20,000 nucleotides of DNA from an uncultured virus (IMG/VR IMGVR_UViG_3300042477_000341) (Duplodnaviria > Heunggongvirae > Uroviricota > Caudoviricetes), in the IMG/VR virus record IMGVR_UViG_3300042477_000341; one strand, given 5' to 3'. Below are positions 4,347 to 19,691 of this stretch, piece by piece. Each line of letters opens with the position of its first letter. Position 1 is the stretch's first letter. A program made the position numbers and the translations under genes. The notes below the pieces were generated by a model, which did no database searches, was not told the DNA's origin, and was given only the letters and a program-made list of their open reading frames with translations.

Positions 4347-4375
4347 ATTATATAATAATTTATTAGGTCTGTCAA
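4347..4375 (-). promoter_or_regulatory. Consensus SigA promoter, leaderless cysC-like gene
   Basis: TTGACA-17nt-TATAAT, 6 nt before ATG 4340. Confidence 0.85.
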
Positions 4376-14041: not shown

Positions 14042-14071
14042 ATTATACATTAAAAACTACGGCTCTGTCAA
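14042..14071 (-). promoter_or_regulatory. SigA promoter for tRNA-Asn and the whiB operon
   Basis: TTGACA-18nt-TATAAT. Confidence 0.75.
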
Positions 14072-15436: not shown

Positions 15437-15634
15437 TTATTCTTCGTCTTTTCTGAGAGGTATGGTAATTAGCCAAATTACAGTGACTATTACTGTTGCT
15501 ATGCCGACTACATCCTGTGCTGTCCCTGTAAGGGTTAGCCAGGCTATAAAGAACCCAAGGAGGGTCCATAGTTGGGCTATGCTTTCCTTTACTGCTTCCC
15601 ATATCCAATTAAAGAAACCTTTAATTATTTTCAT
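15437..15634 (-). CDS. Small 2-TM membrane protein
   Basis: Two hydrophobic helices; TAATG-coupled to the large surface protein. Confidence 0.7.
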   Translation of the reverse strand: MKIIKGFFNWIWEAVKESIAQLWTLLGFFIAWLTLTGTAQDVVGIATVIVTVIWLITIPLRKDEE

Positions 15635-17577
15635 TATATCCTCCTTGTCATGGCTGCTGCCACTATATTTCCTGCAATAATTACTGGCACTACAACCTCT
15701 TGTGCTTTTTCTCTTTGATCATCCGTCATATCTTTACCCCATTCTGATGGGCTAAATAATTTCTCAAAATCAATATCCGTAATAGCTCCAATTGGGTCTG
15801 ATAAAAATGCTTCTGTGGCAACCTCTGTTGTTGCATCTGCTAATGTATATGGCATTGGAGCACTAGCGTTTTCTTTAATTCTATCACCGAATTCTTCTAG
15901 AGCTGTTGCTAAATTTTTATCAGTAGCAGCTAATGCTGCCACCTTTGCTATTTCTGATGCTCTAATTCCAAGTCCTTCCGCAACAGCCGCTTTTTGTTCT
16001 GGAGTTAATTTAGTTAATGTATCTTTGCTTGTTAAATCTGCAATTAGGTTTGCTGTCTCTTCTGTGATAGTATTGGTAGATGGTTCTTCAGAAGGTTCAG
16101 CAGGAGTTGGCTCTGGTTCAGGAGTTGGCTCTTGATCTATATCCGATGGCTGAGGTGAAGGCTCTGGTGAAGGCTCATCAGTGGGCTCTGTCTCAGGAGT
16201 TGGATCTGGTGTCGGTTCATCTGTGGTTTCAGAATCTGGAGTTGGAGTGGAATCGTCTGGTTCAGTTTGTTCAGGTGATGGCTCAGGAGAAGGTTCAGGC
16301 GTAGGATCAGTTGTTGCATCTGGAGTTGGCTGCGGTTGATTTGCCATAGCAGCAGCTATTGCTGCAGCAACTCTTTGTTGTTCTTCAAATTGCCAAGTTT
16401 CATTATATAATTCCCATGCATCATCTATTGCATTATTTAAATTAATAATAGATTGATCATAAGTTGACTGTGTATTATTTTTAGCAGCTAATGCATTTGC
16501 TGTATTTGTTACTGCAGTATTATAGGTATTAGTCTTAGTTGTTAATGTTTGACTGTATGTGGTTAATGTAGAATTTGCTGTATTGTATGTAGCAAGCTTA
16601 GTATTGTAATCTGTCTGTGCCGTCGCCTGTGCAGTTATTGCTGCATTGTATGCATCAATTTGTGATTGCGTTGCACCTACGCCATAAGAAAATGTATTTA
16701 AATTACAACTAAATCCTATACCCCATCCTCCAGTATAAGCACATCCCGCACCAGTCCACCCGCCTGGAATTGACCAGCCAAGGTGATACGAGCCTGGGCC
16801 GCCACCGTTATACCACCATATTTCTACATCTAAAGTTTTATCTTGACTAACATCATAAACTGGTGAGTAAGGACTCCATGTCGATCCTTGTTCTACCCAG
16901 TTATCAACGGCAAGGTTTCCGTCCACATACATCCTAAAACCATCATCTGTATATCCTGCAAAATATACTGAAGTCCAGTCTGAAGGAACTGTAATTTTTC
17001 CAGTAAACTTAACAATGATATCTTCGTAATATCCGCAAACTGGGAGGTTCATTGAATTTGAATTCCATATACCAGTACATATAACAGATCCAGTCACTGC
17101 TTGGCTACCATTTCTTAATAAGGTATAAACAGTATATTCCAGTCCCTGATTACCAGCGGATTGAACAGTAGATTGCGTTGTTTGTAGATTTATGTTTGCT
17201 ATATCTAATACATCTTGAGCATCGTTTTTATCTTCTAAGGCTGTAGCAACTGTTACCGTTTGCCCATCTACTGCTGATTGAGCTGTTGTTTTTTCAGACA
17301 ATGCTGTTGTTTCTGCTTCTACCGCCTCATTATATGCAGCATATGCGCTATCCCTAGCAGATTTTGATGCTACTGCTGCATCGTATTTGTCTTCTGCTAT
17401 ATCTATTAAGGCTCTAGTATCTGCCTCTTCTGTAAGATTTGTTACCTTTTCGTTTAGTTCTGCTATCTCTTCAGCGGCAACTGAAAGTGGATCATCGCTA
17501 TAAGCAGGTGTGAGAAATAGCCATCCAAACATTAAAATGAATGCTAATGATAATCTCCATGCTTTAGTCCTAGTCAA
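15634..17577 (-). CDS. Secreted or membrane-tethered PA14-domain protein with coiled coils and Pro/Glu/Thr linker
   Basis: Signal peptide; PA14 motifs FTGKI, TDDGFRMYVDG, WYNGGG; PEPSPEP repeats; hydrophobic C-terminus; TTG start with AGGAG SD. Confidence 0.8.
   Translation of the reverse strand: MTRTKAWRLSLAFILMFGWLFLTPAYSDDPLSVAAEEIAELNEKVTNLTEEADTRALIDIAEDKYDAAVASKSARDSAYAAYNEAVEAETTALSEKTTAQSAVDGQTVTVATALEDKNDAQDVLDIANINLQTTQSTVQSAGNQGLEYTVYTLLRNGSQAVTGSVICTGIWNSNSMNLPVCGYYEDIIVKFTGKITVPSDWTSVYFAGYTDDGFRMYVDGNLAVDNWVEQGSTWSPYSPVYDVSQDKTLDVEIWWYNGGGPGSYHLGWSIPGGWTGAGCAYTGGWGIGFSCNLNTFSYGVGATQSQIDAYNAAITAQATAQTDYNTKLATYNTANSTLTTYSQTLTTKTNTYNTAVTNTANALAAKNNTQSTYDQSIINLNNAIDDAWELYNETWQFEEQQRVAAAIAAAMANQPQPTPDATTDPTPEPSPEPSPEQTEPDDSTPTPDSETTDEPTPDPTPETEPTDEPSPEPSPQPSDIDQEPTPEPEPTPAEPSEEPSTNTITEETANLIADLTSKDTLTKLTPEQKAAVAEGLGIRASEIAKVAALAATDKNLATALEEFGDRIKENASAPMPYTLADATTEVATEAFLSDPIGAITDIDFEKLFSPSEWGKDMTDDQREKAQEVVVPVIIAGNIVAAAMTRRI
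16080..16335 (-). repeat. Low-complexity Pro/Glu/Thr/Ser coding repeats (PEPS/PTPD)
   Basis: Repeated PTPEPSPEPSP-type units in the translation. Confidence 0.75.
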
Positions 17578-17628: not shown

Positions 17629-17817
17629 CTATTTAGGATTGTCTGTTTTATAAAACCCGTTACCTTTAAACTGTATGCCGAACGGTGTAAAGTGTCTTGT
17701 CATATTTGCTTCACACTCTACGCATGTGTATCCTGGATCATTATCATTAATAGATCTATGTACTGACATTGTTGGATGTGCATCATCGTATGAACATTTG
17801 TATTCGTATACTGGCAT
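17629..17817 (-). CDS. FmdB-family zinc-ribbon protein
   Basis: MPVYEYKC...CVEC...FKGNGFYKTD. Confidence 0.9.
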   Translation of the reverse strand: MPVYEYKCSYDDAHPTMSVHRSINDNDPGYTCVECEANMTRHFTPFGIQFKGNGFYKTDNPK

Positions 17818-17836
17818 TTTTATCCTTTAATTATAA

Positions 17837-17917
17837 TGAGCAGTTTCGGGACATACTCAGGTCCATCCTGCGGGTAACGGCCCGCTATCTGCGACTTCCC
17901 AGTGACGGGGTGCAGAT
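17837..17917 (-). ncRNA. Candidate structured RNA (two hairpins plus H-type pseudoknot) in the FmdB-gene leader
   Basis: ATCTGC/GCAGAT stem; GCGGG/CCCGC hairpin; GGAC/GTCC stem whose loop TGAGTA pairs with downstream TGCTCA; TATAAT at 17922-17927. Confidence 0.65.
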
Positions 17918-17929
17918 TTCTATTATACC

Positions 17930-18346
17930 TTACTTGATTTTAATTGCTTTAGGCTTTTTTTCTTCTGGAACAATGCGATCAACATTAATATGTAGCATGC
18001 CGTCCTTTAGCTCTGCACCAGATACTTCCATGTATTCACCTAGAGCAAAAGATCTGACGAACTTTCTACCAGCAATACCCTTGTGAACAATTTCTGCATC
18101 TGTAACCTCTACAATTTCACCCTTAATGATAAGCGTTCCATCTTCTACTGAAACACTGACATCTTCCTTGGTAAATCCTGCAATAGCAAGCGATAACCTA
18201 TATGTATCTTCATCTAATTTAAGAAGATCATATGGAGGATATGATTGAGAGTTGATTTTGTGTGCACTATTTAGACGGGCTAGGTCCCTGTTAAAGCCAA
18301 TAAAAAAAGGATCATTAAATAGATCCATTGCGAATTGTGTTACCAT
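17930..18346 (-). CDS. Small heat-shock protein Hsp20 (IbpA-like)
   Basis: SYPPYD, LAIAGF, HKGIAGRKFVRSF, AELKDGML, PEEKKPKAIKI. Confidence 0.95.
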   Translation of the reverse strand: MVTQFAMDLFNDPFFIGFNRDLARLNSAHKINSQSYPPYDLLKLDEDTYRLSLAIAGFTKEDVSVSVEDGTLIIKGEIVEVTDAEIVHKGIAGRKFVRSFALGEYMEVSGAELKDGMLHINVDRIVPEEKKPKAIKIK

Positions 18347-18347
18347 G

Positions 18348-18417
18348 TTATTCCCCTTTCAAGCGAATAAATTAATATACGGACCCTCTATTGAGCAGTC
18401 CGTATACTATTATAGCA
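18348..18417 (-). promoter_or_regulatory. Extended -10 promoter plus two-hairpin 5' UTR occluding the hsp20 SD
   Basis: TGC-TATAAT 18409-18417; stem TATACGGAC/GTCCGTATA; TTATTC-GCTTGAAAGGG-GAATAA then C-ATG. Confidence 0.6.
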
Positions 18418-19661: not shown

Positions 19662-19691
19662 ATTATAACGTGCCGTCTTCATTTTTGTCAA
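19662..19691 (-). promoter_or_regulatory. SigA promoter for the tRNA cluster
   Basis: TTGACA-18nt-TATAAT about 10 nt upstream of the tRNA(CAT). Confidence 0.7.

Follow-up and report, generated by a model that had tools for sequence, protein, structure and literature searches.

A compact covarying pseudoknot behind phage hsp20 genes and at other gene ends in phages and bacteria

The window analyzed here, a 20,000-nt stretch of DNA from an uncultured virus, carries on its minus strand a compact H-type pseudoknot of ~ 28 nt (PK, 17837..17864). Comparison of its copies established PK as a conserved, covarying fold that is portable among unrelated phages and some bacteria. In the window, it ends a cassette that, judged by gene order in relatives, is a modular RNA tied to the 3′ end of phage hsp20 with interchangeable downstream genes. 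PK probably marks and protects the ends of messages rather than controlling the next gene. Our preferred reading, to which we assign a probability of about 40%, is that PK is a transcript-boundary knot, a leaky terminator combined with a 3′-end guard, which here would close a promoter-driven RNA of ~ 80 nt.

The pseudoknot and its covariation

The window is part of a phage-like genome. Its minus strand carries long ORFs and four tRNAs, and the Pfam matches include WhiB, CHAP, nuclease, Hsp20, and zinc-ribbon genes. The WhiB gene, together with the lake origin of the matching RNA runs, suggests a freshwater actinobacterial phage. Reading along the minus strand, the gene for a small heat-shock protein (hsp20, 17930..18346; Pfam HSP20, E 4e-18) is followed by a −10-like TATAAT hexamer without a −35 consensus (17922..17927), a 5′-terminal hairpin with an internal loop (H1, 17887..17917), an optional GC hairpin whose loop ends in a (C/G)YUA-like sequence (H2, 17870..17885), and PK, which occurs once in the window, 65 nt from the hsp20 stop. 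An A/U-only tail and a Shine–Dalgarno-like AAAGGA (together 17823..17836; AAAGGA at 17828–17823, 8 nt past PK) then lead to a gene for an FmdB-like zinc-ribbon protein (17629..17817, start at 17817), whose match to Pfam Zn_ribbon_8 (E 5e-5) is below the curated cut-off. Stem 1 of PK has 4 bp (17864–17861 / 17852–17849) and loop 1 is CU; the loop segment 17859–17854 pairs with 17842–17837 to give stem 2 of 5 bp, loop 2 is a single nucleotide, and loop 3 ends in AAAC.

An earlier note had described these helices (its P1 and P2 are our H1 and H2), the TATAAT hexamer, the pseudoknot, and the Shine–Dalgarno sequence, and all were found where it had placed them on the minus strand. It was also right about a GC-rich island in an AT-rich genome: the 82-nt element is 58.5% G+C compared to 37.3% for the window, a value reached by 0.19% of 82-nt windows and at only two other places in the window. 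Neither a tRNA nor a canonical hairpin terminator was found at the element, as the note had maintained, and its failure to assign a family was borne out by the Rfam 15 covariance models, none of which matched the element (best local E 0.89, an unrelated snoRNA) or its relatives. Likenesses of the cassette to hammerhead, HDV-like, pistol, and ROSE RNAs were dropped after inspection by eye and the Rfam check.

When folded alone, H1 and H2 were more stable than their shuffled counterparts (z −2.9 and −2.8), whereas the whole 82 nt folded no better than shuffles (z −1.1) and PK was invisible to nested folding (z −1.0). Support for PK comes from covariation and not from nested-folding energy. In a random 90 of the 250 listed fixed-length phage matches, taken with no pairing filter, 95.8% of 810 cells were paired and compensatory, two-sided changes were present at eight of the nine PK pairs; none of 500 shuffles, and no slid register, came near this level of pairing. 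For stem 2, 98% of cells in the 90 sequences were paired and four pairs had two-sided changes. The loop pairing of TGAGTA with TGCTCA proposed in the earlier note is therefore real and covarying, with five supported stem-2 pairs rather than six. When the stem-1 pairs were left free, they were Watson–Crick in 131, 131, 130, and 92 of 131 listed matches (shuffle maxima 131, 74, 52, and 61), and freeing the middle of stem 2 gave 107 and 109 of 110 listed (maxima 88 and 93). The outer stem-2 U-A pair, by comparison, was Watson–Crick in 63 of 124 listed matches when freed and in 64.3 in shuffles, and is unsupported; a fifth stem-1 pair likewise had no pairing support. The letters at the PK junction also covary (C-U in 182 and A-G in 18 of 203 listed copies), hinting at a tertiary contact. 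A descriptor of PK recovered at least 337 unique copies in the retrieved loci and one in shuffled loci. These and all other collection counts are samples, that is, copies among the matches listed.

PK occurs alone, outside the cassette, in hundreds of unrelated phages and in bacterial genomes. Cultured phages that carry it, unannotated, infect Lactobacillus (phig1e), Arthrobacter (Amigo), Mycobacterium (Labelle), Roseobacter, and Synechococcus, and a crAss-like phage carries it as well; 8 of 12 annotated-phage regions passed the PK descriptor, and 107 of the 119 bacterial genome matches listed passed a three-pair check. Two PK variants had no match in 28 Gb of Escherichia coli genomes, where a query of 33–34 nt catches near-identical copies only. 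Among 80 listed genome records, none was named as a gammaproteobacterium and two were betaproteobacteria, while Saccharibacteria were frequent, all counted with no background for comparison. Searches of the open-access literature found no description of PK or the cassette in phages or bacteria; subscription papers may hold one. PK had no match in three of the six supplements of Fremin 2023 (PMC10690425), and PK or H1 may be among the 10,006 candidates of that study. The one paper that bears the PK 3′ letters in RNA spelling, 10.1101/2024.06.23.600130, was a chance match.

The hsp20 cassette and its exchangeable parts

The first set of relatives came from 573 loci with an FmdB relative, of which the best 80 were compared; the regions upstream of these relatives consisted of a constant PK core and variable parts. 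TATAAT, which was not included in the H1 search pattern, preceded H1 in all 107 unique contexts listed, at a distance of 6 nt in 105 and 7 nt in 2, with a spacer of variable sequence and with no −35 consensus. This fixed spacing is good comparative evidence for a −10-only promoter that starts at H1, in agreement with the earlier description of the RNA as promoter-driven, and the transcript start is predicted at about 17917–17915. The lower end of the span first given for the element, 17837..17927, stands; its upper end takes in the −10 hexamer, and the RNA would begin near 17917.

PK follows H1 in 101 of 104 unique H1 copies (H1 matches listed plus the first set). H1 is lineage-restricted and nearly invariant in sequence. 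Its outer stem was unchanged in 76 of 76 copies when left free in the pattern, and its single covarying pair was C-G in 65, U-A in 7, and a mismatch in 4; it is a mismatch in the window. Because the outer stem is invariant and only one pair covaries, the H1 fold is plausible but less proven than that of PK. The stretch from H1 to PK was represented by 59 distinct segments among those listed, which held H2-type hairpins, a hairpin of another kind (H3), the two together, or only 3–6 nt, six of the segments being no longer than 6 nt. H2 stems change in sequence among relatives yet stay paired, and in some relatives PK lies 6 nt past the hsp20 stop without H1 or H2. The view of the three helices as one fold had to be abandoned, since H2 is replaced or missing in relatives. 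The tails of the cassettes averaged 1.4 G+C in 11 nt, with at least 5 U in 8 in 28 of 62 unique listed tails; the tail in the window has no hairpin.

Two variants deserve mention on their own. H3, absent from the window and seen between H1 and PK in six loci and others, is a candidate module made of a 4–5 bp hairpin with a purine-rich loop and a UAAAY linker, with a possible second pseudoknot of 3 bp. In four loci of the hsp20 type without H1, a −35/−10 pair ends 8–9 nt before PK, which places PK at the predicted transcript start.

Of the genes on the two sides of the cassette, the upstream one is constant. hsp20 lay upstream in 86 of the 88 unique H1 cassettes listed with 800 nt of upstream sequence, and by a stricter motif test, an hsp20-like ORF stopped within 30 nt of TATAAT in 81 of 88. 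The next gene in these 88, a set partly chosen for FmdB, was a nuclease in 37, FmdB in 26, another gene in 22, and none in 3. Even among the best 80 fmdB loci, a nuclease gene stood between PK and fmdB in 15, and 6 had neither hsp20 nor PK within 1.5 kb. The tie to the FmdB gene proposed in the earlier note thus gave way: the cassette follows hsp20, the downstream gene varies, and PK adjoins many unrelated families. Two other suggestions of that note, an exonuclease-blocking pseudoknot and a phage sRNA, are still in contention. A cis-regulatory RNA specific to fmdB (a riboswitch, for instance) or a self-cleaving ribozyme would suit an element of riboswitch-like size with conserved unpaired letters 8 nt before a Shine–Dalgarno sequence. 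It is nevertheless the least probable of the readings considered here, since the downstream genes are interchangeable and functionally mixed, PK does not overlap the Shine–Dalgarno sequence, the middle modules are optional, and no Rfam riboswitch or ribozyme matched.

Contigs from lake RNA libraries, which may be derived from DNA, covered hsp20 in all four runs examined (of 24). In two of the four, they ran over PK into fmdB, with strand, level, and ends unreadable from the contigs. In one relative's lake contig, the U-G pair of stem 2 is replaced by C-G.

The hsp20 leader itself (18348–18370, minus strand) is a candidate for a ROSE-like RNA thermometer by the definition in PMC3669281. A U(U/C)GCU word pairs with the hsp20 Shine–Dalgarno sequence, leaving a bulged G, and the pattern occurs in 84 of 88 related loci listed; this leader had no Rfam match. 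Immediately after a promoter-like site (18437–18409) is a strong hairpin at 18372–18410 on the minus strand (z −7.2), whose fold is kept in relatives with different stem sequences and which is probably the 5′-terminal hairpin of the hsp20 message. Long-range pairing between the hsp20 leader and the PK loop was rejected, as a matching word was present in only 8 of 69 leaders.

Position of PK relative to genes and transcripts

Genomic context was scored in 203 listed PK copies with long flanks, using a simple ORF rule with a minimum of 60 aa. PK was outside ORFs in 199 copies and within a same-strand ORF in 4. It lies on the coding strand at least 4–5 nt beyond the stop codon, typically by 5–14 nt, and the stop-to-PK distance peaks at 6–14 nt. 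In 106 of the 203 copies, PK was within 30 nt of a stop, in 93 within 40 nt of a start, and in 43 both; 59 of the 106 stop-near PKs had no ORF start within 60 nt downstream. The first paired base was at least 4 nt past the stop in 91 of 92 distinct genes, mostly 5–10 nt, and in annotated phages, six of the eight copies that passed the descriptor began 5–11 nt past an annotated stop. The genes upstream of PK include those for Hsp20, capsid, ribonucleotide reductase, rIIB, and terminase, and those downstream include nuclease, PhoH, kinase, endolysin, helicase, and integrase genes; on both sides, most are without a family.

As a transcript-boundary knot, PK would fold on leaving RNA polymerase and pause the enzyme; the pause and the U/A-rich tail would release part of the transcripts, and the rigid knot would then guard the new 3′ end, or the end left once a following tRNA is excised. 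In the window, two transcripts would end at PK, the hsp20 message and an H1-H2-PK small RNA of ~ 80 nt whose promoter is TATAAT, and read-through past PK would supply fmdB at a lower level. A 5′-end stabilizer of the short RNA is the simplest guess for the role of H1 and H2. There is precedent in preQ1 pseudoknots, one of which, of the same size as PK, stabilizes an RNA polymerase pause (10.1101/350447), while adding an evopreQ1 knot at the 3′ end made an engineered RNA work better in human cells (10.1101/2024.08.05.606586).

We favor the transcript-boundary reading because of the fidelity to the upstream gene and because of the U-tracts, tRNAs, and promoters found downstream of PK. A U-tract (at least 6 U in 8) directly 3′ of PK was present in 43 of 284 listed copies, representing 41 distinct upstream contexts, compared to 2 before PK, 4 at +40 nt, and 10.4 ± 2.6 (maximum 18) in local shuffles. 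Extended −10 motifs were enriched downstream of PK (9 versus 2.3 ± 1.7), which would leave PK out of the downstream transcript. In 9 of the 203 listed loci, a tRNA starts 4–12 nt past PK; these cases are not independent, since eight are tRNA-Asp and seven follow a gene of the phrog_1221 family. In Arthrobacter phage Amigo, PK stands behind the SSB gene and a tRNA begins 2–3 nt after it.

Several observations run against the transcript-boundary reading. With respect to termination, 241 of the 284 listed PKs have no strong U-tract, and the tail in the window has only 5 U in 8; the lake contigs that cross PK into fmdB point the same way. PK was near a downstream start only in 40 of the 203 listed copies. 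Promoter-like sites were also enriched upstream of PK (15 versus 3.6 ± 2.0). In 10 of these upstream sites, from 284 listed PKs, the −10 box is 5–21 nt before PK, which would place PK at the 5′ end of the RNA; this argues against a terminator and suits a barrier to decay from the 5′ side. Among 394 listed copies, there was no sign of a general promoter directly ahead of PK. With respect to a 3′ guard, the invariant loop-1 C and AAAC exceed what such a guard needs and match the letters with which coremin RNAs block 5′-to-3′ machines (PMC6546385). On balance, the comparative data show a boundary element whose direction they do not fix, and the readings as boundary, decay barrier, and ribosome roadblock are not mutually exclusive.

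The spacing from the stop codon would also be expected of a roadblock that stands just outside the ribosomal entry channel at termination, where it could block sliding and re-initiation as a translational insulator, or pause the ribosome at a sensing codon in leader peptides. PK-to-start distances that peak at 17–20 nt are consistent with this, and coremin variants are described as stalling scanning ribosomes and promoting frameshifting, the Watson–Crick type without its second hairpin (PMC10520033, PMC10321173). The same stop spacing is expected if the knot simply must stay folded, however, and no recoding signal was detected: the upstream frame was open in 16 of 92 cases versus 10 and 17 for the other frames, stops were UAA in 64 of 92, and slippery heptamers numbered 18 versus 13 in a control window. 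A stimulator of readthrough or frameshifting was rejected on the same counts. PK in the window is also 65 nt from the hsp20 stop, and a roadblock leaves the tRNAs and U-tracts after PK unexplained. Overall we regard it as unlikely.

The sensing-codon variant of the roadblock draws on bacterial leader ORFs. In 24 of 104 listed genome copies, a short His/Cys leader ORF extends into PK, and in 21 of the 24 PK lies 8 nt past the last Cys codon. These conserved ORFs of ~ 20 aa end in His-Cys-x-x-Gly(-Cys), and with PK they precede Rrf2, cupin, ferritin-like, reductase, and permease genes in Omnitrophota, deltaproteobacteria-labelled, and other genomes. The arrangement is a candidate Cys- or metal-sensing attenuator. 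A likeness to the cobalamin riboswitch, both in H1 and in the sequence preceding bacterial PKs, was discarded, as there was no Rfam match and the letters that precede the bacterial PKs are Cys codons.

The autoregulatory pseudoknot of T4/T2 gene 32 is likewise a phage H-type fold in an intergenic region near a Shine–Dalgarno sequence. By analogy, a protein of the host or the phage (ribosomal protein S1 or an SSB, for example) could bind PK or H1 and thereby enhance or repress translation of the downstream gene. An SD-like word was present in 68 of the 93 start-near PKs, H1 is almost constant in sequence, and the gene 32 pseudoknot, too, has no Rfam model according to PMC10690425. In contrast to the gene 32 knot, PK is not upstream of SSB genes and follows SSB where annotated, as in Amigo, where the next feature is a tRNA. 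A PHROGs comparison of 69 downstream proteins gave no match to an SSB/gp32 family, 49 of them having no match of any kind, and the hosts belong to many phyla. A protein site therefore has a slim chance of being the explanation.

Two further patterns of placement were noted. Two to three PK matches within 1.5 kb stand behind consecutive short genes in ten loci, one of which has a pair of PKs 31 nt apart; PK may mark modular gene units. In Firmicutes phages and prophages, PK is often found between the minor-capsid genes and the capsid scaffold gene, with seven loci noted.

Likeness to coremin and other known RNAs

Of the known RNAs that we compared, PK is closest to coremin (xrRNA-C), an Xrn1-resistant RNA found in beny-, cucumo-, and other eukaryotic RNA viruses; in sequence and pairing PK is a relative of this class and not a member. 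As described in the coremin papers, the motif needs a 4-bp hairpin, a YG(NN)AD loop (YGAD or YGNNAD), an AAACUAC linker, and a second hairpin (PMC6546385, PMC10520033), and its structure is called unsolved there. Like PK, coremin has a 4-bp first stem, a pyrimidine as first loop base (PMC6546385; PMC10520033), an A before the last loop base, and a short linker ending AAACU-R-C, and it is placed between genes or where a 3′ UTR begins. Unlike coremin, PK has an 8-nt loop with U at position 2 where coremin needs G, a 5-bp Watson–Crick stem 2, and no second hairpin, and it occurs in DNA phages and bacteria. The counts reflect both sides of this comparison. Three pairs of stem 1 were near 100% and the fourth was Watson–Crick in 92 of 131. 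The linker AAACU was mostly kept (AAACUGC in 327 and AAACUAC in 41 of 406 listed copies), with several scan patterns fixing these letters. G was found at loop position 2 in none of 406 listed copies, and the freed position was U in 118, C in 5, and A in 1 of 124. A second hairpin after the linker, as in xrRNA-C and the Watson–Crick coremin (xrRNA-WCC), was present in 32 of 406 listed copies compared to 25.2 ± 3.5 in shuffles and 56 at +60 nt, and there was none in the window. The likeness may reflect either common descent or convergence toward a compact, rigid fold.

xrRNA-WCC resembles PK in its canonical stem 2, in which GAG pairs with CUC, in its A-rich linker, and in its position a few bases past the stop (PMC10321173). 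PK shares the Watson–Crick pairing of loop with linker, in its 5-bp stem 2. It differs from xrRNA-WCC, which has a 4-nt loop, needs G as loop 1, has a 3-bp stem 2, and requires the second hairpin for Xrn1 resistance (PMC10321173); the 8-nt loop of PK started with C in 90 of 90 copies, a letter fixed by the search patterns so that G variants could not be found. The words "phage" and "bacteri" do not occur in PMC10321173.

These likenesses suggest that PK might be an xrRNA of the bacterial world in which the longer Watson–Crick stem 2 replaces the second hairpin, stopping 5′-to-3′ decay by RNase J so that the downstream RNA survives. The stem, first-loop pyrimidine, penultimate loop A, and linker would all agree with this, both loop letters being fixed by the descriptor. 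A natural 7-nt loop that differs by one U from the PK loop was Xrn1-resistant in the coremin context (PMC10520033), and a natural Watson–Crick coremin lies 8 nt into a 3′ UTR, the same position as PK (PMC10321173). Against it stand the missing loop G, the lack of the second hairpin needed for Xrn1 resistance, the failure of ordinary frameshift pseudoknots to stop Xrn1 (PMC10321173), and the U-tracts after PK, which a decay barrier leaves unexplained. Among 70 PK-bearing genomes (from 80 listed loci, with the pairing check passed and one locus per genome), 47 had a full-length RNase J match, a figure that has no background rate; 23 had none, including all seven labelled Omnitrophota, although these metagenome-assembled genomes may be incomplete. 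As RNase J was not found in any of the seven, PK does not seem to depend on it. We consider the decay barrier possible but doubtful.

Other compact pseudoknots are more distant. Luteovirus-type frameshift pseudoknots (BWYV, PLRV) resemble PK in their compact H-type fold, in the conservation of the first base of loop 1, and in an A-rich loop that follows stem 1 along its length (PMC10321173). They differ from PK, which lies outside ORFs and has no slippery-site or open-frame signal. The preQ1-I aptamer is similar in size, H-type topology, and A-rich 3′ loop, and is a precedent for RNA polymerase pausing (PMC11625349; 10.1101/350447). In PK, however, the 3′ strand of stem 1 is preceded by A and a variable base rather than the UC/AC specificity motif (PMC11625349), stem 2 is fully paired and leaves no pocket, the flanking genes are unrelated to queuosine, and there is no Rfam match.

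Tentatively, the readings can be joined in a wider proposal drawn from these comparisons, in which PK would be the prokaryotic counterpart of coremin xrRNA: a mechanical barrier of ~ 28 nt without a second hairpin, present in phages of many phyla and in bacterial chromosomes, that may halt RNase J and ribosomes arriving from the 5′ side and double as a pseudoknot terminator. In lake actinophages, it would have become the base of a promoter-driven small RNA with exchangeable modules behind hsp20, and in some bacteria that of a His/Cys leader-peptide attenuator. PK is a very common, strongly covarying element without an Rfam model or an open-access description that we could find, and its likeness to coremin ties phage gene expression to a decay barrier of RNA viruses. 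As a fully Watson–Crick relative with hundreds of natural variants, it should be an easier target for structural and mutational work than coremin. Should PK prove to end transcription, it would represent a terminator built on a pseudoknot, which hairpin predictors miss; should it prove to stop RNase J, it would count as a naturally occurring xrRNA of bacteria. In either case, it would be a compact part with which to stabilize or insulate transcripts.

Elsewhere in the window, a 647-aa protein encoded at 15634–17577 on the minus strand combines a PA14 domain (E 1e-5) with a signal-like N terminus and a long linker rich in Pro, Glu, and Thr. Three sites on the minus strand (4347–4375, 14042–14071, and 19662–19691), all on the coding strand, are perfect 12/12 matches to sigma-70-type promoters, in contrast to the −10-only site before H1.
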